Shown one piece after another: positions 6,190 to 32,724 of a stretch of 64,000 nucleotides of DNA. The position numbers were made by a program, and so were the translations under genes. The notes under the pieces are model-generated. The model made no database searches. It saw nothing but the letters and a program-made list of their open reading frames with translations, and was not told where the DNA came from. This DNA comes from Candidatus Nanoarchaeia archaeon (GTDB lineage Archaea > Nanobdellota > Nanobdellia > Pacearchaeales > GW2011-AR1): NCBI GenBank assembly GCA_041501125.1, contig JBGQNO010000001.1, forward strand, positions 37,981 to 101,980, given 5' to 3'. The first letter of the stretch is position 1, and the number at the start of each line of letters is the position of its first letter.

Positions 6190-6214
6190 GTTTAAAATAA
6201 AAAAGAAAAAAGAT

Positions 6215-6412: not shown

Positions 6413-6456
6413 AAATATAAAAGAACAAAGCAGTATTTAAATTTATCAAAAAATGG

Positions 6457-17945: not shown

Positions 17946-20543
17946 TTATTTTTCTCTTTTTTCCTTTATCTGCTTGTACACTCGCTTCAAAAACTCAATC
18001 TTGTCCTCCATTTTCAGCAAATCCATCCTGCCCTGCATTATAAGATTCAGGGAAAACGGCGAAGGAATGCCTGTCTGCACGAATTTAATCTTGATTCTTC
18101 CATCTTTAATCAAATCAACAATCTTTTTTGCATTTTCAATGTCCATTACATCTTCAAGAACTTCTCTTCTTGCTTCTTTTAGTATTGGAAATTCTCCGGA
18201 AATTCTTTTTATAGCATCAAGAATAAAGCCAGACTTGACCTGCTGCCTTCCGACAGAATTTGTTCTGCCCTTGTAATTCCTGAGAATCATCAATGCCCGT
18301 GTCGCGCAATGCCTGAACCTTCTTTTCAGTATTTCTGTCCTGTCAATTGCTTCCTTCAAAACCTCATCAAGATTCTCGCTTGCTAAAAATTTCAGTGCTT
18401 TCTCAATTTTCTGCCTGTCAACATTTTCCCCTGAAACAAAAAATCCATTGTCATTGATTCCAATTTCAATATCCCTGGAGCCAATCCTTGAAACAAGGAA
18501 TGCAAAAGCTCTTGACAGCGCGTCATTAACCCGCCTGCCATAGAGTGTATGGAAAATAAAATAATCCTTGTCTCCTTTGTAATTCTCAACAATAATCTCT
18601 TTCAGTGAAGGAATTCCAATATAATTTTGCTGCTCTTCAAAATACTCATAAATCTCCTTGACACTCTTGTCATGAACATAGCAATGTTGTTTAATAAACT
18701 CCTTGATTTCACATGGACTTAGTTTTTTATGAAATTTTTCTTTAACCAGCTCCCTGAATCTCAATATTTCCAAAGCAAGGTCAAAACTTAATGGCAGCAT
18801 CTCTGAAAACCAGCTCGGAATAGTCGGTGCTCGTTGCACACTTCCCCGGACATATGCATTCATGCCTCTAGTATAAAGAAACTCATACCTCTCGCCTCCA
18901 AGCACAAAAACATCCCGTGGTTTTAATTTCTCGGCAAATGCCTCATCTATCGCTCCAACTTTATGCCCTTTTCTTTCTCCACCAGCAATCACCACATTAA
19001 CAAAAGACTCATCCGGAATTGTTCCAATATTAGTCATATAAATGACTCTTGCAAGCTTTCCCCTCTTTCCAATCTGTTTTGTTTCAGAGTCATACCATAT
19101 CTTTGCATACACATTTTTAGCTTCAAGAGCATACTCTCCTGCAAGATAACTTATTACTCCAAGGAACTCTGCCTTGCTCAAATCCTTGTAAGAATAACAC
19201 CCTTTAATCAGTTCATAGAGCTTGTCAATGTCCCACACCTGATAGATTGCCATGCCAAAAATCTGCTGGCTCAAGACATCCAAGCAATTCTTTGGAATAA
19301 ACACCCGGTCAATCTTCCTTTCTATAATTGCTTTCTTTATTATGCAGCATTCTACAAGATCATCCTTGTCTAAAACAACAAATCTTCCTATTGCAGTATC
19401 ATGAAGTTTGTGCCCTGCTCTTCCTATTCTTTGCATTGCCCTTGAAACAGCCTTCGGACTTCCAAGCAGTATAACAAGGTCAATATATCCAATATCAATT
19501 CCAAGCTCTAAGCTGGTTGAGGTTACAACAACTTTAAGTTTTCCTTCACGCAATCTTTGTTCAATGTCAAACCTTGCATCCTTGCTTAAGGATGAATGAT
19601 GTGCACCTATGTTTGCAATATACTTTGCCGGAAACATCTCCTTTAGATGGTGGATAACTCTTTCAGTCGCGCTTCTTGTGTTTGTAAAAATAACAGTAGT
19701 CTTATGCTCCTGGACAAGTCTGTCAATCAAGCCATAAAGTGAACTGTGCATCTCCAAGCCAGTCGTGTCCAAAAGACTTTCCACAGGTGTAAGAACATCT
19801 AAATCAAGTTTCTTGTCAAATTTTGCATCAGCCACAAGGCACTCTTTTGTTGAGCCAACCAGGAACTTTGCCATCTCATCCAAAGGGGCAATAGTAGCAG
19901 ACAATCCAATCCTTACAGGAGTAATCTTGCTGATGTGCTGCAGCCACTCTAGACTAAGGCTTAAATGAACCCCTCGTTTGTTTGCAAGCGCATGTAGTTC
20001 ATCAACAATAACAAACTCAACACTCTCAAGTTTCTCAGCAAACTTCTTAGAGATAAGAATAATTCCAAGACTCTCAGGTGTAGTTACTAAAATATGAGGG
20101 GTATTCTTGGTCATTTTCTGCCTTTCAGAAGTGCTTGTGTCACCTGTTCTAAGCCCGACTCGTATCTTTTGAAGTTTTATTCCTTTTTTCTCAGCCAGTT
20201 CATTAATCTGTTTCAAAGGAGTTTCCAGATTAACATAAATATCATTGCTTAGGGCCTTCAAAGGCGAGATATACACTGCATAAACCTTGTCTTCAAGTTC
20301 TTGTCTCTCAGCCAAGCTGACAAGATAATTAATAATGCTTAAAAACGATGTAAGAGTTTTTGTTCCTCCTGTAGGAGCTGAAATCAGAATGTTCTTTCTT
20401 TCATGAACAGGCATTACACCATAGAGCTGTGGTATGCTGAACTTCTCAAATCTCGAAAAGAACCACTCATTCACAAGAGGGTGCATAATTCCAATTATCT
20501 CTTTTGGTTCCCTAAGCTTAGCTTCTCCAATTTTCCAATCCAT
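17946..20543 (-). CDS. lhr: Lhr-like ATP-dependent DEAD/DEAH-box helicase (Lhr-core)
   Basis: 865 aa. Walker A APTGGTKT, DELH box (VDELHALANKRG), helicase C-terminal motifs, plus a long Lhr-type C-terminal extension. Confidence 0.85.
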   Translation of the reverse strand: MDWKIGEAKLREPKEIIGIMHPLVNEWFFSRFEKFSIPQLYGVMPVHERKNILISAPTGGTKTLTSFLSIINYLVSLAERQELEDKVYAVYISPLKALSNDIYVNLETPLKQINELAEKKGIKLQKIRVGLRTGDTSTSERQKMTKNTPHILVTTPESLGIILISKKFAEKLESVEFVIVDELHALANKRGVHLSLSLEWLQHISKITPVRIGLSATIAPLDEMAKFLVGSTKECLVADAKFDKKLDLDVLTPVESLLDTTGLEMHSSLYGLIDRLVQEHKTTVIFTNTRSATERVIHHLKEMFPAKYIANIGAHHSSLSKDARFDIEQRLREGKLKVVVTSTSLELGIDIGYIDLVILLGSPKAVSRAMQRIGRAGHKLHDTAIGRFVVLDKDDLVECCIIKKAIIERKIDRVFIPKNCLDVLSQQIFGMAIYQVWDIDKLYELIKGCYSYKDLSKAEFLGVISYLAGEYALEAKNVYAKIWYDSETKQIGKRGKLARVIYMTNIGTIPDESFVNVVIAGGERKGHKVGAIDEAFAEKLKPRDVFVLGGERYEFLYTRGMNAYVRGSVQRAPTIPSWFSEMLPLSFDLALEILRFRELVKEKFHKKLSPCEIKEFIKQHCYVHDKSVKEIYEYFEEQQNYIGIPSLKEIIVENYKGDKDYFIFHTLYGRRVNDALSRAFAFLVSRIGSRDIEIGINDNGFFVSGENVDRQKIEKALKFLASENLDEVLKEAIDRTEILKRRFRHCATRALMILRNYKGRTNSVGRQQVKSGFILDAIKRISGEFPILKEARREVLEDVMDIENAKKIVDLIKDGRIKIKFVQTGIPSPFSLNLIMQGRMDLLKMEDKIEFLKRVYKQIKEKREK

Positions 20544-20595
20544 TTTAACAAAGAATCCTTTCGCATCTTATTAGCCTTTTGTGTTGCTTATAAAG

Positions 20596-21087
20596 TTAAT
20601 GATATACCCTTTTGCAATCAAATCTTGTCAATTTTTCTTTAGAATACTGCAATATAACTTCAAATACCCCTTCCTGCTGCCCTATTAAATCAAAGATTTT
20701 CCTGTCTCCCTCGTACATTCTTATTTTTGAAATTTCAGAATTTGTAACCCAAACAAGTTTGTCTTCAGGCCTTTCTTCTTTCAATCTCCCGTTAAAGGCA
20801 CTAGCATCATAAAATTCTACTCTCCAGTCTTCAGGATTTTCTTTTCCATTCAAAACCCTGCCCCTGTTAAAGAACGTTGCAATCACCCTAAGCCGAGGAT
20901 CCATCAGCCTTAAGCCAGTCTCTTCTTTAATCTCTCGGATTATGCAATCAATACTCCTTTCACCTTCTTCCAATGTCCCGCCAGGAGCAACATAATACCC
21001 TTGGTGAATGTCCTCTTTATCCCGATTTCTATAAAGGAAAAGTGTTATTCCCCCGCTTGTCAAGAAGCACGCTGTCCCATTTTTCAT
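20596..21087 (-). CDS. NUDIX hydrolase
   Basis: 163 aa. Nudix box GGTLEEGERSIDCIIREIKEETGL. Confidence 0.8.
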   Translation of the reverse strand: MKNGTACFLTSGGITLFLYRNRDKEDIHQGYYVAPGGTLEEGERSIDCIIREIKEETGLRLMDPRLRVIATFFNRGRVLNGKENPEDWRVEFYDASAFNGRLKEERPEDKLVWVTNSEISKIRMYEGDRKIFDLIGQQEGVFEVILQYSKEKLTRFDCKRVYH

Positions 21088-21169
21088 AACTACTGCAAAA
21101 TCTCAGAGTTTTTAATTTTTTATGTGTTTTTACACATATATTTAAAAAGATATTCGGTATTAATTTTCT

Positions 21170-21433
21170 ATGAAGCTCAGCCAAGTAAAAAAAGACAAGA
21201 TTTCAGAGCAGATTCTATCGCATCTTTATCACATCTATCCACAATCTAGGTTTACTGCTGAGATTGCAAGAGAGCTTGCCCGCGATGAAGAATTCATTAA
21301 AGCCCTTATGTTAGAGTTGCAGAAGAAAAGCCTGGTCACAGCAATCAAGAAAAACCCTGCAGGAATAGATTATGAAAGAAGAATCAAATGGAGACTGTCA
21401 AATAATAGTTATTCTGCATATAAATCTTTATAA
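21170..21433 (+). CDS. Small winged-helix DNA-binding protein (putative transcriptional regulator)
   Basis: 87 aa. Helix-turn-helix-like segment FTAEIARELARDEEFIKALMLELQKKSLV. Confidence 0.4.
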   Translation: MKLSQVKKDKISEQILSHLYHIYPQSRFTAEIARELARDEEFIKALMLELQKKSLVTAIKKNPAGIDYERRIKWRLSNNSYSAYKSL

Positions 21434-21455
21434 AAAACACTTCAAGTAAGATTAG

Positions 21456-22121
21456 ATGAACGAGCTAAGAGAAGCTTTTAAGAAAGTAAAGGAGGACATT
21501 CTTCTGCTGAATGACGAAGTCAGCACATTAAAAGACGCTTTCTCAGACATTGGTGTTAAGCTGGATGAAATATCCAGAAAGACAGATATTCTGCAGACTA
21601 AACCAACATACACTCCAACACATCCTTCTTATGAAACAGCAACTCCGACACATACTCCAACAGTTCCACAGGCAACAGGGGGGTTAAAACCCCAGTTTAC
21701 CAGTATCTCCATAGGAAATGAAGGGGTTCCAACAGACAGACAGGCAAACCAACAGACAGGCATCCAACAGATAATTAAACAAGAAAACGCCCTGGAAAGA
21801 GCCCATGAAATACTAGACTCTTTAGACAGTCTTAAGAAAGAAGTTCGCATTAAATTCAAGAGACTTACTGAGCAGGAGATTAAGATATTCTCCTTAATCT
21901 ACCAGCTCGACGCTGACGGAGAAATGGTTGATTATAAGCTGCTCTCCCAAAGGACCGGACTTTCAGAATCTTCAATCCGGGATTATGCCCATAAAATCAT
22001 TCAAAAAGGAATCCCGATTTTCAAGGAAAAACTTAATAATAAGCAGATAATATTACATGTATCCCAGGATCTCAGAAAAATTGCATCCCTTGACACGATT
22101 TTGAAGCTCCGCGAAATCTAG
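21456..22121 (+). CDS. Coiled-coil / Thr-Pro-rich linker / C-terminal winged-HTH regulator (paralog of 22457-23071)
   Basis: 221 aa. N-terminal heptad-like segment (LLLNDEVSTLKDAFSDIGVKLDEISRK). TYTPTHPSYETATPTHTPTVPQATGG linker. C-terminal HTH (LTEQEIKIFSLIYQLDADGEMVDYKLLSQRTGLSESSIRDYAHKIIQKG). Confidence 0.5.
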   Translation: MNELREAFKKVKEDILLLNDEVSTLKDAFSDIGVKLDEISRKTDILQTKPTYTPTHPSYETATPTHTPTVPQATGGLKPQFTSISIGNEGVPTDRQANQQTGIQQIIKQENALERAHEILDSLDSLKKEVRIKFKRLTEQEIKIFSLIYQLDADGEMVDYKLLSQRTGLSESSIRDYAHKIIQKGIPIFKEKLNNKQIILHVSQDLRKIASLDTILKLREI

Positions 22122-22456
22122 TATTTTACCGTCGATAAAACACCTTTTTCCAGCATCAAAGACAAAAATTTAGAATAAGACATTCGTTTAAACGAAAATC
22201 TATTTACTTCTGCCTCTTCTTCAATTCCCACATCGTTTTATGCATTTCCCACGATGTTTGACATTCTTTTTCAAGCAAATTTTTATGCTTATTCTGCATT
22301 TAAAACGAACCTTTGTAACCTCACAAGTTCACCTTAATTTTAACTCTCTCTTCTGGAATCTTTCAACCGCAGCACTCTTTTAGTATGTCTTTTGCCTTCA
22401 TGTCTCTCATATTTCTGCACTCACTTCTTTTTCTTGATGGTTTTACCCTCGTCTTC

Positions 22457-23071
22457 CTAATCTTTCCTGTCTTTTTTACCATTCCTAACTCTCACTTTTA
22501 CACTTTTTAGCATTCTTTCTTTAACATCATCAGGCACAAATACCCTCTTTTTACCGTTTTTCTCTATTATTTCCTCAATCATGCCCTCACTTTTCTGTTT
22601 GATAGCATTTACCTGCCCCCTAATCGTAGCTCTGCTTTTTCCTAGCATCACAGCAAGGTCATCGTAACTCAACTTTAGATCAGAGTTTAACATGATGGCA
22701 AACAACGCGCGCTCCATCATTGAAAAACTATCTAAAACACCTGTTTGAACAGGTGTTTGAACAGGTATTTGAACAGCTTCAACAGCCCGCTGTTGCTTCA
22801 AAACAGCCCTGGGTGTTTTAAACAGCTGTTTAACCACCCTCTCGTCAGCCATAGACATCACATCTTTTAGGCTTTCCAGTTCGCGTTTTATCGTCGACAA
22901 ATCATCTTTGACGCTGTTTATATCTTCCTGATGGCCCTGGTCCTGTTTATGCAGGTGTTTTATCCAGCTGCCAATCTTATCAATGTCATCTTTGACTAAA
23001 GAAAAACTATTCTGAACATCCTCTTCAAGCTTCTCAACACTCTTTTTCTTTCCAAACAACCAATCAAACAT
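22457..23071 (-). CDS. Coiled-coil / Gln-Pro-Val-Thr repeat linker / C-terminal HTH regulator (paralog of 21456-22121)
   Basis: 204 aa. N-terminal coiled coil. IPVQTPVQTGV repeat linker encoded by a tandem DNA repeat. C-terminal HTH (LSYDDLAVMLGKSRATIRGQVNAIKQK). Confidence 0.5.
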   Translation of the reverse strand: MFDWLFGKKKSVEKLEEDVQNSFSLVKDDIDKIGSWIKHLHKQDQGHQEDINSVKDDLSTIKRELESLKDVMSMADERVVKQLFKTPRAVLKQQRAVEAVQIPVQTPVQTGVLDSFSMMERALFAIMLNSDLKLSYDDLAVMLGKSRATIRGQVNAIKQKSEGMIEEIIEKNGKKRVFVPDDVKERMLKSVKVRVRNGKKDRKD

Positions 23072-23170
23072 GTAATCTAATCAGATTTAATCTTTATAAA
23101 CATTACGTCTCCGACGTCACTACTCAATATTTCGACGCTAAAATAAGCATAGATTCGGCATCGGAAATAA

Positions 23171-23252
23171 GGGTGTTTAACCAGTCTTTTCCAAAACAAA
23201 CACCTGTTTAAACCAGTCATTTTTAAAACAAACACCTGTTTAAACAGCCCTA
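23171..23252. promoter_or_regulatory. Operator-like direct repeats upstream of the 22457-23071 regulator gene
   Basis: Two copies of AAAACAAACACCTGTTTAAAC (23193-23214, 23225-23246) plus a partial GGGTGTTTAACC (23171-23182). The same CACCTGTTT(G/A)AAC half-site is tandemly repeated inside the regulator's own coding sequence (22738-22775). Confidence 0.35.
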
Positions 23253-23449
23253 AACAGCGTTTATCGACGCTGACACCAAAAATACCCCATCTCCAACACT
23301 CCTAAACACCCCCAATAGAGCACCTTCCCGTCGCTATTTTTCAGGATTTTCCTCAATTATTTTTCTCAATTTGCAAGGAGAAAGGTTTTTAAACATCTCC
23401 GTCGTAGAGTAATCAATATATAATTAAATTAAAAAGGAGGATAAATAAA

Positions 23450-23617
23450 ATGGCAAAATTGACTGCATGGCTTGTAACCATTATCGGTGTTTTGTTACTG
23501 TTACCTTTGATCGGCGTAACTGCATTAGCTGGAATGAATGACTGGCTTATTGCAATAGCTGTAGTGGTAATCGGTATCGGCAAGCTCATGAGGAACTATA
23601 GCGCAAAAAGGAGATAA
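23450..23617 (+). CDS. Small membrane protein (55 aa, 2 TM)
   Basis: ATG preceded by AAAAGGAGG (Shine-Dalgarno-like) 8 nt upstream. MAKLTAWLVTIIGVLLLLPLIGVTALAGMNDWLIAIAVVVIGIGKLMRNYSAKRR. Below the ORF-track cutoff. Confidence 0.4.
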   Translation: MAKLTAWLVTIIGVLLLLPLIGVTALAGMNDWLIAIAVVVIGIGKLMRNYSAKRR

Positions 23618-23665
23618 TTTTATTATTTCTTTTTTCTTTTTTTTATTATTTTTTGTCATTTTATC
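23618..23665 (+). terminator. Oligo-T tract (archaeal intrinsic terminator-like)
   Basis: TTTTATTATTTCTTTTTTCTTTTTTTTATTATTTTTTG immediately after the small membrane protein gene. Confidence 0.35.
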
Positions 23666-23763
23666 ATGTCATTATAAGCTAAAACATCTAAGCGCTGATT
23701 AAAACTTTCAGCATGAATAAAAATCCAAAAAAGGTCATTTAAACCATTAAAAATTCATTAAAA

Positions 23764-23991
23764 ATGCTATCAAAATTCAGGACAGAATTCAAAAAACAGA
23801 CTCGTTTGGCAATAGCAGCTGCAATCGGATTCATAATTGCATTCGCCTGGAAAGATTATATAACAGCCACAGCCCAAAACTGGCTTTCAGGTTTCTCAGC
23901 ATTCTCAGGCCATATTCTTTTATCATCTGCAGTTCTTTTGACCTTGATTGGCACGATTCTGATTCTAATTGCCTCCTGGGCATTAGAGTAG
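23764..23991 (+). CDS. Small membrane protein (2 TM)
   Basis: 75 aa hydrophobic ORF (LAIAAAIGFIIAFAW...LLSSAVLLTLIGTILILIASWALE). Confidence 0.35.
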   Translation: MLSKFRTEFKKQTRLAIAAAIGFIIAFAWKDYITATAQNWLSGFSAFSGHILLSSAVLLTLIGTILILIASWALE

Positions 23992-24108
23992 TCATTAGAA
24001 TAATAAGCTCGCTAAAACTTCCAGTCATCAGCAGAAAGTTTCAGCATGAGAAAAATTTCAAAAAATGCTTGTTTTCCAGCATAGAAATCATTAAAAACTT
24101 CAGAAAAG

Positions 24109-24486
24109 ATGAGAAATTTTATGAGAACGGGATATCTGGTGTTAGCATTAATGTTATTATACTTCTTAGCAGTATCCTACTTTTGGAATGCATATATTGC
24201 AGCATCTTTGATCTTGTTATTAGGCATTTCAAGTTTTATGATATCACATCCACATCCAATTAGTAAATTAGGTTTAGGCATAGGAATAGGAATATTTGCA
24301 GGATGGATAATTGCCCTTTATCAACATGTATCTTCTAAAGGGTATTCTTTCAATGGACCAGAAGTTGGCTTTTTCTTTGCAACATTTGTTGTGGCCATTA
24401 CATTAATTGCTTTTGATGCTAGGTCATATTCTAGGCAAAATTATCAAGTTAAAACCTTCAATCACCGCTTAAACCTTCCTGCATGA
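24109..24486 (+). CDS. Membrane protein (3-4 TM)
   Basis: 125 aa hydrophobic ORF. No recognisable family. Confidence 0.35.
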   Translation: MRNFMRTGYLVLALMLLYFLAVSYFWNAYIAASLILLLGISSFMISHPHPISKLGLGIGIGIFAGWIIALYQHVSSKGYSFNGPEVGFFFATFVVAITLIAFDARSYSRQNYQVKTFNHRLNLPA

Positions 24487-24599
24487 GTATAAACCTCATC
24501 AAAAACCCAAAGTTTTAGGCTAAAACTTCGCACAACATATATTGTGACTACCCTTGAATTTAACTAAAAATATATAAAGATGTTCGCACAATTTATCAT

Positions 24600-25442
24600 A
24601 TGGACAAAGAGGAGTTTCTTAAAAAGATTGAAGTAGAGCTGAAGATTTCTAAAAACTCAGTCTACACACTCAGAAACTATCTTGCTGCTAATACCCTGCT
24701 TCTTGACTATGTCAAAAAGAATCCAGATGAAATAACCTCTGATGATATCAAGCAGTACATGGCTGACAAGCTTTCTGACAAAGCCGCAGTTTCAGTTATT
24801 ATGTTTCTTGCAGCCATAAGATATGCCTATACAAACCTGCTGGAAAAAGACCCGACCTTAAATATTAAAAGGCCAAAAAAAGAAAAGAAACTGCCAGTTG
24901 TTCTTACCAAAGATGAAGTAAAACGATTGATGGCTGCAATCCAAAGTAAAAAAAGCAGGTTAATGGTAAGCCTGATGTATGCCTGTGGTTTAAGGGTGTC
25001 TGAGTTGCTTAGCCTTAAGCTACAGGACATTGACTTTAATGATAAAGTAGGATATACAAGGCAGTCAAAAGGCAAAAAAGACAGGGCTTTTAATATTCCA
25101 GAATTCATTTTTAAAGAACTCGAAGAGCAGTCAAAATCACAACAGGCAGAAGCAAAAGAATTTTTGTTTACAGGCCCAAAAGGCAGGCTTTCCTCAAGAA
25201 ATCTGCAAAAAATAGTCAGAAAAGCAGCAAAAAATGCAGGAATAAACAAGCCGGTTCATTGCCACACACTCCGGCATAGTTTTGCAACGCATTTGCTCGA
25301 GTCTGGCACAGATATAAGGTTAATCCAGGAGTTGCTTGGACACGAAGATCTTTCAACAACCCAGATTTACACCCATGTTTCTCGGGAAGAACTAAAGAAA
25401 GTCAAGTCTCCATTAGACAATTTAATGGCTGATGTAAAATGA
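24600..25442 (+). CDS. xerA: Tyrosine recombinase, XerA/XerC-like integrase
   Basis: 280 aa. Catalytic R...HxLRH...Y signature (HCHTLRHSFATHLLESGTDIRLIQELLGHEDLSTTQIYTHV). N-terminal SAM-like core-binding domain. Confidence 0.85.
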   Translation: MDKEEFLKKIEVELKISKNSVYTLRNYLAANTLLLDYVKKNPDEITSDDIKQYMADKLSDKAAVSVIMFLAAIRYAYTNLLEKDPTLNIKRPKKEKKLPVVLTKDEVKRLMAAIQSKKSRLMVSLMYACGLRVSELLSLKLQDIDFNDKVGYTRQSKGKKDRAFNIPEFIFKELEEQSKSQQAEAKEFLFTGPKGRLSSRNLQKIVRKAAKNAGINKPVHCHTLRHSFATHLLESGTDIRLIQELLGHEDLSTTQIYTHVSREELKKVKSPLDNLMADVK

Positions 25443-26008
25443 GCATGCAGCAAAACAGCCTGTCTGAAAATTATAGATTTGTGGAAAAAGTTTTGGTTCA
25501 AGGTGATTCAAGATATCTTAATCCTTATCTTACGAAGATTCTTGCTTATTTTATTACAAAGAAAGCGGTGTCTATCAACGAGCGAGAAATTCAAAAAATT
25601 CAAGAGCCAAAAGAAAACGATTTGCATGAACTAACCAATCCTCAAAAATTAGCGAAATATATAGCAAAAACTCTTTTAATCAGCGAGGGCTTTTTAGATT
25701 CCGAAATATTTTTTGAAAGAAATTTTGGAGACAGCAGGCCAGACGTCTCTGCTTTAAATTCAAACAGGGAGATATTTGTTGAATGTTTTTCGTGCAGGAT
25801 TAACAAAGTAATAGATTATCTTTCTCAAGATAGAGAGGTGTGGGTTTTAACATCAGGTTCATACCCCTGGGATAAAAGTCCTCTTACTGAAAAAATTAAA
25901 CTCATTGAATTTAAAAAAGGACAAAACTGGGATTTAATATTTGATGAATACAAAGCAAAACAGAACAAAATGTTAGGTGATATAAAAAATCCTCTTGACA
26001 ATCTGTAG
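25439..26008 (+). CDS. Hypothetical protein co-transcribed with the integrase (possible PD-(D/E)xK-like nuclease fold; C-terminus mimics an integrase C-terminus)
   Basis: 189 aa, 4-nt overlap with the integrase stop. RPDVSAL...EIFVECFSCRINK is loosely PD-(D/E)xK-like. The C-terminal IKNPLDNL matches the XerA-like C-termini SPLDNL and NPLDGL. Confidence 0.3.
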   Translation: MSMQQNSLSENYRFVEKVLVQGDSRYLNPYLTKILAYFITKKAVSINEREIQKIQEPKENDLHELTNPQKLAKYIAKTLLISEGFLDSEIFFERNFGDSRPDVSALNSNREIFVECFSCRINKVIDYLSQDREVWVLTSGSYPWDKSPLTEKIKLIEFKKGQNWDLIFDEYKAKQNKMLGDIKNPLDNL

Positions 26009-26070
26009 TTTTATTTGTCTAATCACGCATTTCCAGACCTTCTGGCATAAGATTCCATATCTTTCCAAGA

Positions 26071-26682
26071 TCATGTCCCAGCAGCTGATGCTGCTTTTCC
26101 GGGTTCTTGTTTTGAAGACTCTGGCTGAATTGACAGAGCTGGCATAGGTGTAGGTGTTGATGAAACATGTTCAGCTTTACTGGATTCTGGTTTTGCAGAT
26201 TCTGCATCTGTTTGTTTTATGTAAGCTTTCAAAATCTGAGTGCTTATAGGGCTGTTAGGGTTTTCTTGTAAAATTTGAGGATATGGTCCAACATAATACT
26301 GTGCGCATAAACCCATGATATATTCGCGGACAACAATATGAGTTTTTGACTCAATCACGCTTCCTGTAACAGTGCTGTCTTTGTCAAGTCCATACCTCAG
26401 AGCCTCGCCAAGATAATGCCTAATCCATCTCTCTTTCCTTTCTATACGATGTTTGTATAACTCTATGTCCAAAACATTATCTTTTTGCTCCGTGACTTTT
26501 TCGCCTTCTTCCGGCTTTTTCTCAACAGGTTCTAAACTTGTTCTTAATATGTTAACATCCCTAATCAATCGTTCTAATGTTCCTACAAGCCATTTTTTTC
26601 TTTCTAATCCGTGCACTAATTCATTAACATTCTGAGCGCTGGTTTTTTCTTCAACTCCCATATCCTGAAAACACATTTTCAA
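26071..26682 (-). CDS. Hypothetical protein with low-complexity Ser/Pro/Lys-rich C-terminus
   Basis: 203 aa ORF. C-terminal AESAKPESSKAEHVSSTPTPMPALSIQPESSKQEPGKAASAAGT. Confidence 0.35.
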   Translation of the reverse strand: MKMCFQDMGVEEKTSAQNVNELVHGLERKKWLVGTLERLIRDVNILRTSLEPVEKKPEEGEKVTEQKDNVLDIELYKHRIERKERWIRHYLGEALRYGLDKDSTVTGSVIESKTHIVVREYIMGLCAQYYVGPYPQILQENPNSPISTQILKAYIKQTDAESAKPESSKAEHVSSTPTPMPALSIQPESSKQEPGKAASAAGT

Positions 26683-26744
26683 TTTATAAGAATTCGTATG
26701 TTTTACCCTAAGCTTTATAAACCATCTTTATATCCATAAGTCTT

Positions 26745-27182
26745 ATGTCAAATAATTTAGGTTCAAGAAGTTCAGACAATGAGCACTCAATTGATGGAAT
26801 TGTAATTCCAGATACACTGAAAGAAGGTTATTCATTAGAAAATATGCAAAATGTTATAGAAATACTCAGAGAGTCAGTTTCTAATCTTCAAGAGCTCACA
26901 AGAGAGCATATAATGCCTGCCAGTGAAGCAGCTAACATTGCACATGCCCTTTATGACAGGACCGAAATTATTGGCTGGCATCTTTTGCATAAAGATAAAG
27001 AGTTTAAAAAGAATGATGAAAGAAAGTACGGCAAGATGATAGACTGTGTTACAGATATCCATACAAATCTTTGCAAATTAATGATTGCTAAGGTTGTATA
27101 CTCGCCTAGCGAACTTGCAGAAAAAACAAGAGAGGAATATTTCCAATTGCATCCAGACCAATACAAAGAAGATGCAGCTTAA
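26745..27182 (+). CDS. Hypothetical protein
   Basis: 145 aa ORF with no recognisable motif. Confidence 0.3.
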   Translation: MSNNLGSRSSDNEHSIDGIVIPDTLKEGYSLENMQNVIEILRESVSNLQELTREHIMPASEAANIAHALYDRTEIIGWHLLHKDKEFKKNDERKYGKMIDCVTDIHTNLCKLMIAKVVYSPSELAEKTREEYFQLHPDQYKEDAA

Positions 27183-27193
27183 TTCTATTTAAA

Positions 27194-27445
27194 ATGAATG
27201 CCACTCAGGAACAGCCATCCACTCTTGTTGAAAGAATAAATTTTCTCAGAGAAGAGATGCGCAACAGAAGAAGACGCGGAGAATACTGCACAGCCCAGGG
27301 CATATTAAAAGACGGCAGTGATAATAAACACATAATTTGTAATTTTCCATACATTGAAAAATATTGTTGGCACAAATGTAATCAAATTCGTGGAGTTCGC
27401 TCAATGCACGATCTTTGCAATTATCGTCCGACACCTTTTGATTAA
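27194..27445 (+). CDS. Hypothetical Cys/His-rich small protein (possible Zn-binding)
   Basis: 83 aa. C..C..H..C....H..C pattern (EYCTAQG...HIICNFPYIEKYCWHKCNQIRGVRSMHDLCNY). Confidence 0.3.
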   Translation: MNATQEQPSTLVERINFLREEMRNRRRRGEYCTAQGILKDGSDNKHIICNFPYIEKYCWHKCNQIRGVRSMHDLCNYRPTPFD

Positions 27446-27494
27446 TATATTTCTTTGCAAGTAAGTTTATAAATTAAAGTTCGCTTTAATATGA

Positions 27495-28055
27495 ATGAGA
27501 AAAGAGGTGGAGAAAGTTTACATAGGTGTAGACGAATCTAATCATGGCAAATATCCAGAATATTTTGCAGCAGTCTTCTCGCCATTTGAATCAGATGTTA
27601 CAGCCAGAAAAATGAAAAAACAAAGAGAAAAATGCAAACATCAAAATCTTCTGTCAATGCTTGCGCGGGAAAGAGATTATTCTTTTTTAAGATTAGAAAA
27701 GCCCGATGATGAAAAATTAGGAAAAGATAAACTTGGAATTGTTATAGCTAGTTTAATCTCTGATTGTGTAGAAGATTATGAAATCAGAGGAAATTATACT
27801 GAATATGCAATTTTTGTCGATGGAATCATAGACAATAAATCAATCGGTCGAGCAAGAAGTATAGTCTCAGATTTGACAGAAATTGAGAAGCAATTTTTAA
27901 TAATCAAACCAAGCAGCGATGAAAGAATTCCAATTGTGAATTACGCTGATGAGCTTGCGCATTTCTTTTTTAGGCATACAACATCTCATGATCAAAATAC
28001 AAAATATTTGTCACACCACAAGGCATTGCTGAGGACAGGAGAAATAGCAGCATGA
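27495..28055 (+). CDS. Hypothetical protein co-transcribed with the second integrase (N-terminal YIGVDES motif, RNase H-like/DUF3800-like)
   Basis: 186 aa, 4-nt overlap with the downstream integrase start. The N-terminal VYIGVDESNHG resembles the first catalytic motif of RNase H-fold/DUF3800 proteins. Confidence 0.3.
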   Translation: MRKEVEKVYIGVDESNHGKYPEYFAAVFSPFESDVTARKMKKQREKCKHQNLLSMLARERDYSFLRLEKPDDEKLGKDKLGIVIASLISDCVEDYEIRGNYTEYAIFVDGIIDNKSIGRARSIVSDLTEIEKQFLIIKPSSDERIPIVNYADELAHFFFRHTTSHDQNTKYLSHHKALLRTGEIAA

Positions 28056-28885
28056 TAAACTACCTTGAAAAAATCTCGATAGAATTGAAGCTGAAAGGCT
28101 TTAGCGAGAAGACTGTAAAAATATATTCCTACTTTGTAAAAAAATATCTTGATAAGCTAGCTTTGGAAAACAAACAGCCTGAGAATGTAATCATTGATGA
28201 TATCAAGAGTTTTTTAGCAAGCTTGATTGACACCTACAGCAATAAATCAAGAGCATTGGCAACATCATCGCTTAGATTCTTCTACAAATCAGTAATGAAC
28301 AAGCCAGAAATTATGATTGGAATAGAAATTCCAAAGTCCGAGCAGTATCTTCCAAGTGTATTGACAAAAGAAGAAATTAAGAAACTTATCGATGCTGCTT
28401 TCACTGAAAAATCAAGATTAATCATGTCTCTTTTGTATTCTTCAGGCATCAGAGTCTCTGAACTTGTAAATATAAAAGTAAATGACATTGATTTTGAAAA
28501 TAAGCGCGGGGTTGTCCATGGAAAAGGAAACAAATCACGTCAGATTTTCCTGAGCGAAAATCTTTGCAAAGACTTAAAGGCATTTTTAGAGAAGAATCCC
28601 AATCAGAAATTCTTGTTCACAAGCAAGGAAGAAGCCCTGACAACAAGAAACATACAAAAAATAATCAAAAAAGCAAAAGAAAAAGCAGGCATAACAAAAA
28701 AAGTCACTCCGCACACTTTTCGCCATTCTTTTGCAACGCATTTGCTTGAAGCCGGCGTCGATATAAGAAAAATCCAGGTTTTACTTGGACATAGCAGGAT
28801 TGACACAACACAAATTTACACAAGAGTTTCTGGAAAAGAGCTTGAAAATATCAAGAATCCGCTTGATGGTTTGGAAAATGTGTGA
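28052..28885 (+). CDS. Tyrosine recombinase, XerA/XerC-like integrase (paralog of 24600-25442)
   Basis: 277 aa. HTFRHSFATHLLEAGVDIRKIQVLLGHSRIDTTQIYTRV. Roughly 40% identical to the first integrase by eye. Confidence 0.85.
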   Translation: MINYLEKISIELKLKGFSEKTVKIYSYFVKKYLDKLALENKQPENVIIDDIKSFLASLIDTYSNKSRALATSSLRFFYKSVMNKPEIMIGIEIPKSEQYLPSVLTKEEIKKLIDAAFTEKSRLIMSLLYSSGIRVSELVNIKVNDIDFENKRGVVHGKGNKSRQIFLSENLCKDLKAFLEKNPNQKFLFTSKEEALTTRNIQKIIKKAKEKAGITKKVTPHTFRHSFATHLLEAGVDIRKIQVLLGHSRIDTTQIYTRVSGKELENIKNPLDGLENV

Positions 28886-28886
28886 T

Positions 28887-29204
28887 TTATTCAATAATTA
28901 ATTCAAGAGTGTCTTTCAATATGATTTGATGCCCCTTAGATTTTTTAACTTCTTTTTTTAATTTCCAATACATATCTTTTGATAAAGTGATATCTGCTGT
29001 TTCAGAATCAGGCGTTAAATATGTGGTTATGTCATTGTCTTGTTTTAATCCAGTAAACTCAAGATGTAATTTCAGCAAATATCTTTTGCTTCGCGGTCTG
29101 TATATCAAATCTCGTTCACGAGCATATCCTGCAACTTTAATTTTCATTCCACGCTTACAATTGCTGCTTTTAAATCCTTTATTGCGCTTAAGAATATACA
29201 ACAA
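28887..29204 (-). CDS. Hypothetical protein
   Basis: 105 aa ORF lying between the second integrase and rps9. Confidence 0.3.
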   Translation of the reverse strand: MLYILKRNKGFKSSNCKRGMKIKVAGYARERDLIYRPRSKRYLLKLHLEFTGLKQDNDITTYLTPDSETADITLSKDMYWKLKKEVKKSKGHQIILKDTLELIIE

Positions 29205-29215
29205 AAGCTAAGAAT

Positions 29216-29626
29216 TTATCTGTATGATTTCTGCATGCTTGCTCGTGCCTTACTGTCATTAGGTTTCCTGTCTTCCTTTCTTCTTGTGTCTGCAATAAGC
29301 AGATTTTTGTCATAAGCAGAGAATGCTTTCTTCAAGTCATTTGACCGTGTTGCCTTGATAAGAGCTCTTGCAATAGCAAGTCTTGCAGCTTCAATGCCTG
29401 CCTCTTGTCCGCCGCCATTCAATCTTATTGAAATATCATAATTCACATTTCCAAGAATGTTCTTGGCAATCCTCAAAGGCTCATCTATCATTAATTTTCT
29501 GAACATCGGTTGCAACTCATATGGCTTATTGTTGATGGTTACTTTGCCAGTTCCTTCTATGATTGTTGCCCTGGCTACACTCGCTTTTCTCTTTCCTGTA
29601 ACTACTATTTTGCTTTTGGTTTCCAT
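29216..29626 (-). CDS. rps9: 30S ribosomal protein S9 (uS9)
   Basis: 136 aa. C-terminal ...KARASMQKSYR is characteristic of uS9. Confidence 0.85.
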   Translation of the reverse strand: METKSKIVVTGKRKASVARATIIEGTGKVTINNKPYELQPMFRKLMIDEPLRIAKNILGNVNYDISIRLNGGGQEAGIEAARLAIARALIKATRSNDLKKAFSAYDKNLLIADTRRKEDRKPNDSKARASMQKSYR

Positions 29627-29627
29627 A

Positions 29628-30044
29628 CTATTTTCCGCCTCTCAGGAATTTTGAAAGTTCTGCAAGCGCAATTCCTTTTACTTCTTCATTTCTTTTGCAG
29701 ATTATTTCCTTCTTGATATTCATGTAAGTTCCAGGCACGCCAGAATAACATTTGATTATTTTGAATGCTATCTTTCCTCGTCCTTCATTGTATTTCAGCA
29801 TTCCTCTTACAGTCCTTTTCATTATCTTCTCTGGCAAAGTCGGGAACAATGGCCCTTTCATCTTCATGTGCTTGCCCTTTTGTCTCATTATAATATATTT
29901 TTCAAAGATGCTATGCCTGTTTCCAGTTATAAATATTTTTTCACAATTCACAATAACAACTTCATTTCCCTGCAAAGCCTGCTTGGCAGCATAGCTAGCA
30001 ATTCTTCCCATAATGCATCCGTCAGCATCAATTACAATTGTCAT
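29628..30044 (-). CDS. rpl13: 50S ribosomal protein L13 (uL13)
   Basis: 138 aa. N-terminal VIDADGCIMGRIASYAAKQALQGNEVVIVNCEK is a typical uL13 motif. Confidence 0.85.
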   Translation of the reverse strand: MTIVIDADGCIMGRIASYAAKQALQGNEVVIVNCEKIFITGNRHSIFEKYIIMRQKGKHMKMKGPLFPTLPEKIMKRTVRGMLKYNEGRGKIAFKIIKCYSGVPGTYMNIKKEIICKRNEEVKGIALAELSKFLRGGK

Positions 30045-30100
30045 TTTATTTCATGAAGCTTGTCCTCCACAAGCGAATGATTGAAAATTATTTATAATTT

Positions 30101-30469
30101 TCATTTTTTGAATATATTAAATTTAGTTCTTTGATTTCTATCAATTTCATCTTTTATCTTTCCAAAATCAATCTTGCTTTTCTTTAATTTATCTTCAGCA
30201 GATTTTGAAAATGAAAAAGCTATCAACCTGACCTTCTTGTTTAAGGCCCCTGTGCCTAAAACCTTTCCAGCAACCACAACAACATCTCCATCCTTGGCTT
30301 TCTTGTCAATCTCGTCCAAGTTTGCATCTATCATCCTTCTTGCTGGACACGAGAGCATTCCTGCAACCTCAACCCACATTCCATTCTTTTTTGCTTTCAG
30401 AATAGTTTCAACTAGTTCAGGATTAACCTTTCTTTGCATTTGTTTATCGATTAGTGTTTTTGATTTCAT
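30101..30469 (-). CDS. rpl18e: 50S ribosomal protein L18e (eL18)
   Basis: 122 aa. Conserved position between rpoD and rpl13. L18e-like N-terminal KTLIDKQMQRK. Confidence 0.75.
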   Translation of the reverse strand: MKSKTLIDKQMQRKVNPELVETILKAKKNGMWVEVAGMLSCPARRMIDANLDEIDKKAKDGDVVVVAGKVLGTGALNKKVRLIAFSFSKSAEDKLKKSKIDFGKIKDEIDRNQRTKFNIFKK

Positions 30470-30665
30470 TGTAAACTTGACAGAAGTCTTGATATCGACT
30501 CCTGCTCAGCGCGATTAACTCGCAGGTTGAAACTTGAATTGGAGTATGCTTTATAAAACTTTCCAAATAATGTTTGATTCACTCTTGCTGCGGCGAACAA
30601 AACAAATGTTTGACATTGCTTACTGCGGACGCCTGATGGCGTTCCTCGTTATCGCAATGCGAACA

Positions 30666-30749
30666 TGCGGGGAGAAGGAATCGAACCCTCGCAGGCACTA
30701 AGCCACTTGGTCCTTAGCCAAGCCCGTTTGACCGCTCCGGCATCCCCGC
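30666..30749 (-). tRNA. tRNA-Leu, type II. Apparent anticodon AAG (anticodon loop CUAAGGA)
   Basis: Reverse-strand cloverleaf: acceptor GCGGGGA/TCCCCGC+A. D arm CCG-GAGCGGTCAAA-CGG. Anticodon stem CTTGG/CCAAG. Variable arm GGC-TTAGT-GCC. T arm GAGGG-TTCGATT-CCTTC. Confidence 0.6.
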
Positions 30750-30795
30750 TTGTATGCAATTTTACAACTCTAAGAAATCAACTGGTTTTAAAACT

Positions 30796-31515
30796 TTACT
30801 CTAGCTCTTTCAAATTCTCTTTCAAAGCCTTTACAGCTTCAAACAGAATTTCCTTGGCAGGCATCTGTCCCCAGGATTCTATGCAGAACACGAGTTCCTT
30901 GCCTGGAGCAATCCTGAAATCAAGATTTTTGTCAGTATCATAAAAATCAGTCTTGTACTTATCAATCAACTTAATCTCTCCGTCTTTGAACTCAAGAATT
31001 CCCTTTGGATATCTTTCAATTATCTTGCTGTCTTTCTTGTTTCCTTCAAGTTCAGCAACATTTCGATAGTAAGCCAATCCAGGCGAATATTTTGTATGCT
31101 CAGTTCCTTTTCCAAGCCTTGCAAATGCAACAAGTTCAAGCTCCTGTCCTTCATTCAAGTACACTAAAGGTACATCGGAATAAACAGGCTTTGCGCTTCC
31201 TTTTAATTCCTTAGAATAAACAAATCCAGGCTCTTTAGCCCCAAGTTTCAATTGTATCGTGCACTTCGAGCAACCCTTGCCCTTGCAAGTGCACTGGTCT
31301 GGCATCTTCATGTCCTTGTCCATCTTCAATGGAAGAAGTCCAAGTCTTAATGCAAGAACTTCATCATAGAGAACAGAATCATTTTTAACAAACTCAACTT
31401 CATCAATTGCAAGAACCGGAATTTCAAGCACACTTCTCCTTATCGCATTCGCCAAGCTTTCTGACATTTCTGCTGCAAAGCAGATTTCTTCATTAGTGTT
31501 TTTTATTATTTTCAT
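30796..31515 (-). CDS. rpoD: DNA-directed RNA polymerase subunit D (Rpo3) with Cys cluster insertion
   Basis: 239 aa. Conserved archaeal position after rps11. Cys cluster CTCKGKGCSKCT typical of Rpo3 domain 3. Confidence 0.85.
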   Translation of the reverse strand: MKIIKNTNEEICFAAEMSESLANAIRRSVLEIPVLAIDEVEFVKNDSVLYDEVLALRLGLLPLKMDKDMKMPDQCTCKGKGCSKCTIQLKLGAKEPGFVYSKELKGSAKPVYSDVPLVYLNEGQELELVAFARLGKGTEHTKYSPGLAYYRNVAELEGNKKDSKIIERYPKGILEFKDGEIKLIDKYKTDFYDTDKNLDFRIAPGKELVFCIESWGQMPAKEILFEAVKALKENLKELE

Positions 31516-31856
31516 TTTTTAACCTCATTCCAGTCTATTTTCTCTCGCTTAGCATTACCTATTGTGAAGCCATTAGGATATCGTTTTTTGAGTTTTTCAA
31601 TATTTTCATTTAATACGTCCTCAAGTTTCCAGCCGAAGAAATTGCAAATCATTGCTATATACCATAAAGTATCTCCCAAGTTTTCTTTTATTCCGGGCTT
31701 TACATCGTTGTCATGGGCAAATGTTTTCTTTATGCAGCCAGCCACATCCCCTGCTTCTCCCGCCATTCCTAAGCCCCATGTAAATATTTCTGCCTGCTCA
31801 CTATCAAATTTCTTTGCAGTTATCTTGCACGCTTCCTGATACTCATTAAGGTTCAT
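31512..31856 (-). CDS. MazG-like nucleoside triphosphate pyrophosphohydrolase
   Basis: 114 aa. Helix pair GMAGEAGDVAGCIKK ... LGDTLWYIAMICNFFGW fits the all-alpha MazG/NTP-PPase fold. Inserted between rps11 and rpoD. Confidence 0.55.
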   Translation of the reverse strand: MNLNEYQEACKITAKKFDSEQAEIFTWGLGMAGEAGDVAGCIKKTFAHDNDVKPGIKENLGDTLWYIAMICNFFGWKLEDVLNENIEKLKKRYPNGFTIGNAKREKIDWNEVKK

Positions 31857-32236
31857 TATACTCTCCTTCCTCTTTTTCCGCCCTTCTTCTTTGGACCGCC
31901 GCGAGGAACGCAGCTTATTTCAACAATATTTAATATTTTTAATCCTTCTTTTGCAAGAGCCTTTACAGCAGAATGTGCTCCAGGTCCTGGACCCGGACTG
32001 TTTGTCTGTGCCTTAACTCGAACATACAGCGATGTAATTCCAAAATCCTTTGCCTGTTCAGCTGCTTTCTTGGCAACAAACATTGCAATTGTTGGATTTG
32101 CCTTTAATCTGTCATGCTTTGTTATCTGTCCGCCAGAAACCCGGCTGATTGTTCTTCCAGCCAGGTCAGTGATATGCACAATAGTGTTATTGAATGAAGT
32201 GTAGATATGAGCAATTCCAGCTATTTCATTTGTCAT
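31856..32236 (-). CDS. rps11: 30S ribosomal protein S11 (uS11)
   Basis: 126 aa. GIAHIYTSFNNTIVHITD...NSPGPGPGAHSAVKALA is the uS11 signature. Confidence 0.9.
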   Translation of the reverse strand: MTNEIAGIAHIYTSFNNTIVHITDLAGRTISRVSGGQITKHDRLKANPTIAMFVAKKAAEQAKDFGITSLYVRVKAQTNSPGPGPGAHSAVKALAKEGLKILNIVEISCVPRGGPKKKGGKRGRRV

Positions 32237-32724
32237 TGCATTTCTCCCTTCTTAGCTGCAACTTCTTTCAGAGGCTTTGCGAGAACTTCTATCTTGTGTT
32301 CCTCAGCAACATCTATAACATAGCTCGGAATATTAACAACTTTTTTATCAACCATAACATGCCTATGAGTTATCAGTTGTCTGGCTTGCTTTGGTGTTTT
32401 AGCCAGGCCTTTTGTGAATACAATTGTCTGCAGTCTTCTGTCAAGCCAGTCTTCTTTCTTCAATGCAAGAATATCAGCTATTTTTTCTACCTTCAGCCCA
32501 ATTTTCTTCAACTTTGTTATAAGAACATTTTTCTCTTCTTCTCCTCCAGTGATAAGCGCCTTTGCAATGTTCCTAAACTCTCGTATTCTGGCTTCTGCTT
32601 TCCAGATCTCTCTCTTCTTTTCAAGTCCGTATTTCTTGACTATTCCCGCTTCTACTTCGAATCGTGCCTTATCAAAAGGCTTTCTTGGCTTGCTGTATGT
32701 TTTTTTCTTTCTAATCCATGACAT
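32233..32724 (-). CDS. rps4: 30S ribosomal protein S4 (uS4)
   Basis: 163 aa. Archaeal uS4 pattern with S4 RNA-binding domain (RRLQTIVFTKGLAKT). Confidence 0.85.
   Translation of the reverse strand: MSWIRKKKTYSKPRKPFDKARFEVEAGIVKKYGLEKKREIWKAEARIREFRNIAKALITGGEEEKNVLITKLKKIGLKVEKIADILALKKEDWLDRRLQTIVFTKGLAKTPKQARQLITHRHVMVDKKVVNIPSYVIDVAEEHKIEVLAKPLKEVAAKKGEMQ

Follow-up and report, generated by a model that had tools for sequence, protein, structure and literature searches.

The segment at positions 21170-29215 of the archaeal DNA analysed here (64 kb in all, and referred to below as the window) encodes two tyrosine recombinases of the XerA family, Xer1 and Xer2, among a series of small open reading frames (ORFs), and ends beside the gene for ribosomal protein S9. 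An earlier note on this DNA had taken the segment for one or two integrated plasmid- or virus-like elements, or for a recombination hotspot, rather than core chromosome. The explanation that best accommodates the evidence, and is probably correct, is that the segment forms the chromosomal XerA neighbourhood of a DPANN archaeon (Nanoarchaeota, Pacearchaeota/Woesearchaeota-like) and not an integrated plasmid or virus. A block consisting of two ORFs with weak helix-turn-helix (HTH) matches (w221 and w204), small membrane proteins, a recombinase operon and the S9 operon is conserved across the lineage, and strains differ in several short stretches between its genes by replacement or deletion. Unannotated ORFs are named here by the letter w and their length in amino acids (aa), such that w87 encodes 87 aa. 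The most interesting content of the segment is the family represented by w189, an unannotated group of recombinase-associated proteins bearing a XerA-like C-terminal tail, together with the two XerA subfamilies that share the locus. For annotation, the lesson is that a pair of integrase-like genes with a string of orphan ORFs beside a ribosomal operon need not signify a mobile element.

The S9-proximal neighbourhood in related genomes

The arrangement of the window's contig is seen in at least three samples, and the neighbourhood is anchored in all related loci by ribosomal protein S9 (29216-29626, minus strand; PF00380). The related locus L004 is approximately 79% identical to the window at the DNA level, with 88% and 86% identity between the Lhr and S9 proteins, respectively, and keeps the order of w87 (91%), w221 (81%), w204 (84%), w55 (67%), w75 (89%), Xer1 (92%), w189 (70%) and Xer2 (87%). 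Four stretches (the NUDIX gene, w125, the run w203-w145-w83-w186, and w105) are swapped in L004 for non-homologous sequence of other length. Locus L105, with 92-95% DNA identity to the window and 99% identity in S9, retains w145 (95% nucleotide identity), w83, Xer2 and w105, as well as w203 in a different form, a 293-aa ORF of which the ends alone align. The genes w203, w145 and w83 are absent from L004, where an unrelated 120-aa ORF also takes the place of w105, and unrelated ORFs stand at the position of w125 in both L004 and L105. L108 is close to L004, lacks w105 and has the stop codon of Xer2 only 6 bp from that of S9. A 44-nt junction block between variable genes (24448-24491) is found also in L105 (7511-7554; 89%) and L004 (8225-8300; 84%) despite differing upstream genes, and shows no significant hairpin (z -0.3 to -0.45).

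The same organization extends to more distant relatives. Orthologues of w221 are 95% identical in L105 and 41-49% identical (tblastn) in the distant loci L121 and L120, and homologues of w204 with 43-54% identity lie 2-3 kb upstream of a recombinase gene in L117, L119, L120, L121, L132, L135, L136, L138 and L143, with S9 downstream wherever the contig extends that far; a further match to w204 (46%) is present in L011. The layout w221/w204, recombinase-w189 and S9 recurs in distant Nanoarchaeota with S9 proteins merely 50-55% or so identical to that of the window. Either a xerA gene or a recombinase-w189 pair is located 0-3 kb from S9 in L007, L011, L091-L093, L117, L121 and L143; the one XerA gene of L011 abuts S9, and those of L091, L092 and L093, encoding proteins 64-67% identical to Xer1, lie 1-2 kb from it.

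The features expected of an integrated element are missing from the segment. No att-like direct repeats of at least 14 nt bracket the segment or either recombinase gene in 20000-31500, and no tRNA gene or tRNA fragment is found at the segment border, the nearest being tRNA-Leu (30666-30749) within the ribosomal cluster, of which no duplicated fragment was detected; this tRNA is the only hit of an Rfam scan of 20500-31000. The GC content of the segment (0.34-0.38) falls inside the spread of the 64-kb window (0.32-0.42). No segment ORF has a meaningful PHROG or PADLOC match, families for replication, capsid, conjugation or defence included. Five IMG/VR scans, with Xer2, w203, w145 and the w186 and w189 families as queries, brought up nothing closely related (31% at best for Xer2), plasmid collections not being among those searched. 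An empty site lacking the whole segment was not seen in the close relatives, L004 and L105 retaining most genes in place. Because gene order is conserved and the signs of a mobile element are missing, we conclude that the segment did not arrive as a single island and is a conserved stretch of chromosome in which several spots are prone to indels. For the segment as a whole, the integrated elements of the earlier note are largely refuted. Its second suggestion, a recombination hotspot rather than core chromosome, is borne out in part by the small stretches that vary in L105 and L004. Synteny without att repeats, named in that note as the finding that would speak against it, holds for most of the segment and not for all of it, the sub-segments Xer1-w189, w186, w125, w105 and NUDIX differing among relatives.

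Two XerA subfamilies and the sequences upstream of their genes

Xer1 (24600-25442, plus strand; 280 aa) and Xer2 (28052-28885, plus strand; 277 aa), rightly recognized as tyrosine recombinases in the earlier note, both match the Pfam family Phage_integrase (E 1e-50 and 6e-49), and their scores of 236.0 and 259.5 bits exceed the cutoff of 220 set for the NCBIfam equivalog XerA_Arch (NF040815). The two proteins share 43% identity (E 4e-64) and an N-terminal SAM-like domain, for which Phage_int_SAM_4 and SAM_1 are above cutoffs, and the catalytic set R132, K157, H222, R225, H248 and Y257 (Xer1 numbering) is invariant across a six-sequence alignment. In a neighbour-joining tree, Xer1 belongs to a tight clade (subfamily A) with the proteins of L007, L091-L093 and L135 and one of two from L137 (L137A), and Xer2 to a looser group (subfamily B) with those of L011, where the gene abuts S9, L120, L143, L144 and L114 and the second protein of L137 (L137B). 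A profile search returned more than 100 Xer1-like proteins of 63-70% identity, the few with named sources deriving from Nanoarchaeota, Nanobdellota, Pacearchaeota or simply an "archaeon"; Xer2 orthologues at 88-99% identity came in the same search from close relatives only. In the window, L004, L105 and L108, it is Xer2 that adjoins the S9 cluster, the order type A, w189, type B is found in the window, L004 and the distant L137, and at loci with a single type, for which flanks of up to 10 kb are available, either type A or type B can be the one seen. Xer1 and Xer2 are intact XerA-family enzymes of two old subfamilies, both able to occupy the locus, and even the very small genomes of DPANN archaea can retain two such subfamilies together.

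The recombinase genes are preceded by a shared box, for which the composite TWTAWA-N2-7-RTTCG-N3-5-AWT was set after inspecting the data. Its three sites in the window, all on the plus strand, lie directly 5' of w87 (TTTAAAAAGATATTCGGTATTAAT; 21141-21169), Xer1 (TATATAAAGATGTTCGCACAATT; 24571-24597) and the w186-Xer2 pair (TTTATAAATTAAAGTTCGCTTTAAT; 27466-27490), the first having a counterpart before the w87 orthologue of L105. Approximately 0.39 sites would be expected in the 64 kb, and 2 of 300 simulations reach three, a comparison that is indicative only, given the post hoc pattern. The box is also present 5' of each xerA examined elsewhere, ten genes at eight other loci; its positions there, before xerA or w87, are 9135 and 11088 in L004, 4141 and 9976 in L105, 832 in L108, 5128 in L007, 9972 in L011, 9934 in L091, 9956 in L092 and 9947 in L093; in L004, L105 and L108 it stands directly 5' of Xer2. 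Its variants follow the subfamilies, those of A being mostly TTCGCACAA or TTCGTAYAA and those of B TTCGYTT(T)AA. We read the box, in the form TATA-RTTCG-N4-AAT, as a putative conserved promoter or operator element of xerA, and the subfamily-specific variants suggest that it is bound by a regulator or represents a XerA half-site. The box resembles the XerC arm of Escherichia coli dif (GGTGCGCATAA), and a XerA half-site at this position could serve autoregulation.

A candidate dif site of low confidence is the 11-6-11 imperfect palindrome ACTTCGCACAA-CATATA-TTGTGACTACC at 24524-24551, located 50 bp upstream of Xer1, to which related sites exist in L004 and L007. The pattern CACAA-N6-TTGTG has one copy in the window, with at least one match also in 16 of 100 shuffled sequences, and the pattern TTCGNNTAA-N6-TTANNCGAA has no match in the region. 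A cleaner palindrome, ACTTCGCTTAA-TACTGA-TTATACGAACC, occupies L105 8183-8210 (identical in L106 and L107) where the window has Xer1-w189; the arms of a palindrome at L138 8305 are nearly those of L105, and another at L120 3116 is found 56 bp upstream of the Xer gene of that locus. These palindromes of L105, L138 and L120 share the 11-6-11 format with arms TTCG...TAA / TTA...CGAA and are candidate dif sites, not statistically secured. A gene for an HNH endonuclease separates the dif-like palindrome from the xerA promoter in L004 (8647-9114) and L143 (2195-2614) and is absent from the window.

Proteins encoded with the recombinases

Each recombinase gene is coupled to a partner ORF, and the 4-nt overlaps reported earlier are confirmed by the coordinates: w189 (25439-26008, plus strand) starts at 25439, ahead of the Xer1 stop at 25442, and Xer2 starts at 28052, ahead of the w186 stop at 28055. 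The w189 protein matches no Pfam, NCBIfam, PHROG or PADLOC family. A word-based search found four relatives, and an exhaustive HMMER search with their alignment returned 82 representatives of 50%-identity clusters. Using a closer family alignment of 8 sequences, 38 metagenomic loci were found, 35 of which have sequence upstream of the w189-family gene, and in 34 of these 35 a recombinase gene either lies immediately upstream on the same strand or is fused to it. Eight of the partners are XerA, the remainder being proteins with Resolvase and PF07508 domains or contig-cut genes that show PF07508 only. A serine recombinase and the w189 domain form one ORF in L111-L114, and fusions among the cluster representatives join the w189 domain to Phage_integrase (P0191, P0205, P0165), to Resolvase/Recombinase (P0170, P0188), or to HNH and Recombinase domains in the order HNH-Recombinase-w189 (P0134). 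Residues Q69, K73, E93, D102, E115 and K123 are invariant in the family, and C116 and C119 nearly so. The invariant E93/D102/E115/K123 and the predicted order of secondary-structure elements fit PD-(D/E)xK enzymes and suggest a putative core of this kind, the AlphaFold2 model reaching a predicted local distance difference test score (pLDDT) of just 36 and SfsA (E 0.98) being the only hint from the PDB.

The distinguishing feature of the family is its C-terminus. Most full-length members end in ELKK[IV]KSPLDxL (family consensus LKxIKSPLDxL), as do the XerA proteins of the lineage, and the corresponding segment of w189 itself is IKNPLDNL. The window and 46 archaeal loci together contain 673 ORFs of at least 80 aa, of which 36 have K[SN]P[LIF]D within their last 16 residues, namely 16 XerA proteins, 19 members of the w189 family and a single HTH-DUF559 protein of L007. 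Synonymous codon differences separate the tail sequences of Xer1, Xer2 and w189, so it is the tail peptide that is conserved and not a DNA site. An origin of the w189 tail as a leftover xerA 3' end from an insertion was considered and judged unlikely, the tail being conserved in members only 26-45% identical to w189; its persistence behind serine recombinases and in fusions, and the synonymous differences, also oppose such an origin. The tail of Xer1 aligns with the extreme C-terminus of the integrase VchIntI4. In XerA of Pyrococcus abyssi, the last 13 residues form helix alphaN, which docks in a surface groove in cis, whereas in Cre and IntIA the corresponding groove accepts alphaN in trans (PMC3646895). 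Without alphaN, XerA still cleaves but no longer recombines, and it forms fewer higher-order complexes (PMC3646895).

These observations allow a mechanism to be proposed. Xer1 and Xer2 would serve the chromosome in dimer resolution, as site-specific recombinases of the XerA/dif type, and are presumably at least partly redundant, since a near-identical strain has Xer2 alone at the locus. Translationally coupled to Xer1, w189 would be an accessory subunit composed of a core, which may be nuclease-like (PD-(D/E)xK-like by sequence pattern only) or DNA-binding, and a C-terminal peptide that copies the alphaN segment. This tail could dock in the groove with which a XerA protomer accepts alphaN, and thereby tether the w189 core or alter the activity of the recombinase. 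The RNase HII-like enzyme w186 would have no link to Xer2 beyond the operon common to both in this strain. Known activators of Xer recombination are FtsK-gamma and XafT of the TLC phage, and Archaea are not known to have FtsK. A tentative and rather doubtful extension is that the w189 family as a whole comprises undescribed accessory subunits whose tail plugs the alphaN groove of XerA, either switching XerA on or off or recruiting it to sites bound by the w189 core and its partner serine or tyrosine recombinase, as a counterpart of FtsK-gamma and XafT, with the XerA subfamilies perhaps forming a pair like XerC and XerD. Since the tail persists where the partner is a serine recombinase, its receptor may be a XerA elsewhere in the locus (L114, L137, L144) or a third protein. 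In w189 there is thus a testable candidate regulator of archaeal XerA that bears the very peptide used by XerA for control between protomers.

The L007 exception to the tail count is a 330-aa protein (6017-7009) with HTH and DUF559 (Vsr-like endonuclease) domains, its gene lying 35 bp past the end of xerA; the C-terminus is EELKKIKSPIDSLIEK, equivalent to the XerA tail, and the protein has no match to the hidden Markov model of the w189 family. Beside S9, L007 thus has xerA, the HTH-DUF559 gene, a gene for a PF07508 protein and a homologue of w186. In L091-L093, xerA overlaps by 4 nt with the gene for a small stand-alone protein made up of PF07508, the "Recombinase" domain found in large serine recombinases. 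Such small PF07508 proteins, of 133-149 aa, are encoded at L091 10831-11280, L092 10834-11235, L093 10831-11250 and L007 8228-8641, and copies 68-72% identical are found directly upstream of S9 in L117, L121, L124 and L143; the 64-kb window has no resolvase or PF07508 gene. In L121 (3236-4558), a 254-aa serine recombinase coupled to a w189-family gene takes the place of XerA, with w204 upstream and S9 downstream, and a serine recombinase coupled in this way is present at the syntenic position of XerA also in L117, L119, L132, L136 and L138. It appears that one recombinase was replaced here by a non-orthologous one, an unusual exchange.

The partner of Xer2, w186 (27495-28055, plus strand), is predicted to be a divergent protein of the ribonuclease HII (RNase HII) type with a complete DEDD tetrad. 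Its AlphaFold2 model has a pLDDT of 85 and a predicted template modelling score of 0.85, and the top Foldseek matches in the PDB are the archaeal RNase HII structures 1eke, 3p83 and 2dfe (E 1e-5, TM 0.59). A profile of the w186 family matched 1EKE alone among PDB sequences (E 6.5e-4). Residues D13, E14, D109 and D142 are invariant in the family; D109 aligns with IYIDA and D142 with the KAD segment of 1EKE, and the N-terminal DESNHG resembles GIDEAGRG of RNase HII by eye, the correspondence of D13-E14 resting on this motif resemblance only. No RNase HII match was obtained in Pfam (including PF01351; E to 0.1) or NCBIfam (E to 0.01), and the first search found eight family members, one of them labelled as from a Pacearchaeota archaeon. 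The coupling of w186 to Xer2 is specific to the window strain, because Xer2 stands without w186 in L004 and L105, from which w186 is absent, and homologues of w186 beside S9 in L007 and, as a weak match, in L091 have no adjacent Xer gene.

The ORFs described in the earlier note are all present at their positions, and its three small membrane proteins correspond to the hydrophobic w55 (23450-23617), with two hydrophobic segments in its sequence, w75 (23764-23991), which matches DUF5654 (PF18898; E 7e-6, above cutoff), and the strain-variable w125 (24109-24486), all on the plus strand. Its Cys-rich protein is w83 (27194-27445, plus strand), with 5 Cys in 83 aa. The upstream border of the segment is a NUDIX gene (20596-21087, minus strand), followed by w87 (21170-21433, plus strand), a small winged-HTH-like protein with a weak match to HTH_69 (E 9e-4, below the curated cutoff). 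The pair w221 (21456-22121, plus strand) and w204 (22457-23071, minus strand), described earlier as paralogous coiled-coil/HTH regulators, have in common an architecture of a coiled-coil N-terminus, as assigned in that note, and a weak C-terminal HTH match, for w204 with weak ParB-HTH and phrog_36 hints only. Their paralogy is not upheld, the BLASTP E value being 0.056 and the profile-profile comparison (hhalign) giving a probability of merely 15% over 50 columns of the HTH alone. Two ORFs without family or viral match, w203 (26071-26682, minus strand) and w145 (26745-27182, plus strand), separate w189 from w83, and w105 (28887-29204, minus strand) is a strain-variable orphan between Xer2 and S9. 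The description of these genes as mostly unrecognisable orphans suits w203, w145, w83 and w105, found only in L105 among the relatives, and w125, found in none; it does not suit w87, w221, w204, w55, w75, w189 and w186, which have homologues in related or distant Nanoarchaeota.

Upstream of w204 are two 32-nt direct repeats containing AAACACCTGTTTAAAC (23176-23247; repeat families D1, D5 and I8). An 18-nt near-palindromic unit, AAACACCTGTTTRAACAG, is found in three tandem copies in the w204 coding sequence (22735-22776), where it encodes PVQT repeats, and in two further copies within the 32-nt repeats, the arms being 95% complementary across 469 nt; these units may represent an operator, or may arise by coincidence from a repetitive linker. 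The 335 bp between the convergent w221 and w204 (22122-22456) hold no convincing gene, a 39-aa ORF being placed there by gene callers, and no Rfam match. Beyond S9, a gene for a MazG-type nucleotide pyrophosphohydrolase (31512-31856; PF03819, E 1e-9) lies between rpoD and S11, and is retained within the ribosomal/RNA-polymerase cluster of L004, L105 and L108.

Competing explanations and comparison with known systems

Several findings weigh against the reading as a chromosomal XerA neighbourhood with w189 as an accessory subunit. L105 lacks Xer1-w189, window positions 24492-26022 being replaced there by 673 bp of unrelated sequence with two small ORFs, and it lacks w186, window positions 27509-28056 being missing; because a strain so nearly identical is without both, parts of the region are dispensable or mobile. 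The related loci reach no further than 10 kb to either side, such that the subfamily counts hold for the locus only. Xer1 and its clade are 60-67% identical between distant lineages, compared with 39-65% for the adjacent ribosomal proteins and RpoD (29216-32724), whereas group B diverges at about the ribosomal rate; the uniformity of clade A could reflect horizontal spread or unusually strong constraint. The search for dif gave no convincing site, and the palindromes described above are candidates only: a relaxed palindrome scan of 47 archaeal sequences yielded 41 matches against approximately 32 expected, which is not above chance, and a 10-6-10 scan found no recurrent site. With respect to w189, the low-scoring model was built with four close homologues, and the tail is kept at least as well behind serine recombinases.

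Some of the same findings would be accommodated if Xer1-w189, perhaps with w186 or the small cassettes, were a minimal mobile or selfish recombinase module inserted beside a resident Xer2 and S9, the rest of the segment being chromosomal. The replacement of 24492-26022 in L105 at 92-95% nucleotide identity, the uniformity of subfamily A across lineages, the coupling or fusion of the w189 family to serine recombinases and HNH domains typical of mobile DNA, the HNH gene directly 5' of xerA in L004 and L143, the DUF559 gene downstream of it in L007, and the dif-like site that borders the variable stretch on one side in the window, L004 and L105 all favour it. The opposite edge, however, has no repeats or second half-site, the position of Xer1-w189 does not differ between the window and L004, which are approximately 80% identical there in nucleotide sequence, subfamily A genes are found at the same S9-proximal position in distant lineages, Xer1 has the promoter box of Xer2, and no copies are present in the viral contigs of IMG/VR; inserted modules of this kind are an unlikely explanation. 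A chromosomal integron, with an IntI-like integrase and an array of small cassettes bounded by attC, is already contradicted and highly improbable. The label "tyrosine recombinase/integron integrase" carried by the XerA family in NCBIfam, VchIntI4 as best PDB sequence match, the small strain-variable ORFs beside the recombinase genes and the integrons reported in Nanoarchaeota (PMC9668308) would agree with it, but the TIGR02249 scores of 218 and 213 fall short of its cutoff of 265, the alignment being split in two, approximately 40 residues of the IntI-specific domain are missing (Xer1 178-198 corresponds to IntI4 181-243), the ORFs are in mixed orientation and form no same-orientation array, and the junction block is unfolded by the z values above, with no repeated attC-like element.

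It is also quite unlikely that Xer1 and Xer2 form a heteromeric pair acting on an asymmetric dif, as an archaeal counterpart of XerC/XerD with w189 as accessory factor. Both enzymes are intact members of the XerA family, type A is followed by w189 and type B in tandem not only in the window but also in L004 and the distant L137, the promoter box is common to both with subfamily-specific variants, and the candidate site at 24524-24551 has unequal arms; yet Xer2 is alone at the locus in L105, the available sequence holds type B only in L011, L120 and L143 and type A only in L007, L091-L093 and L135, no site combining an A-type arm with a B-type arm was found, and XerA of P. abyssi recombines dif without a partner in vitro (PMC2958812). 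The interpretation as a chromosomal XerA neighbourhood is thus retained as the probable one, with conserved genes around a few exchangeable stretches.

The predicted fold of w186, its invariant acidic tetrad and its significant profile match are those of RNase HII of Methanocaldococcus jannaschii (1EKE), from which it differs in its shorter length (186 aa) and in being too divergent for the Pfam and NCBIfam models. Integrative mobile elements exploiting Xer recombination (IMEX) and integrons likewise have small variable genes directly beside Xer-type genes and a dif-like palindrome; unlike these, the segment has no duplicated dif or att site, no attC, no IntI-specific domain, and no replication or structural genes. 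The closest parallel to the recombinases themselves is XerA/dif of P. abyssi, as both window enzymes pass the XerA_Arch cutoff, lack none of the catalytic residues and carry a C-terminal segment at the alphaN position. The window differs in having two diverged copies side by side instead of one, and in the translational coupling of Xer1 to an accessory-type protein, of which P. abyssi XerA has no need in vitro (PMC2958812). The dif site of Thermococcales is not adjacent to xerA (PMC2958812), whereas the candidates in the window, none of them assigned as dif with confidence, adjoin the gene.

With XerC/XerD and their activators, the locus shares two paralogous Xer-type recombinases and a small co-encoded partner that could control them through the C-terminal region; it differs in that there is no evidence of Xer1-Xer2 heteromers, one strain having Xer2 only, and w189 is unrelated in sequence to FtsK or XafT, the contact proposed for its alphaN-like tail being of another kind. 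The large serine recombinases, built in the order Resolvase, PF07508 and zinc-ribbon, offer a last comparison. In the window, w189 is a separate protein encoded behind a tyrosine recombinase, whereas in its relatives the w189 domain follows Resolvase and PF07508, either fused or in the next gene, and thereby takes the position of the C-terminal DNA-binding domain of these enzymes.

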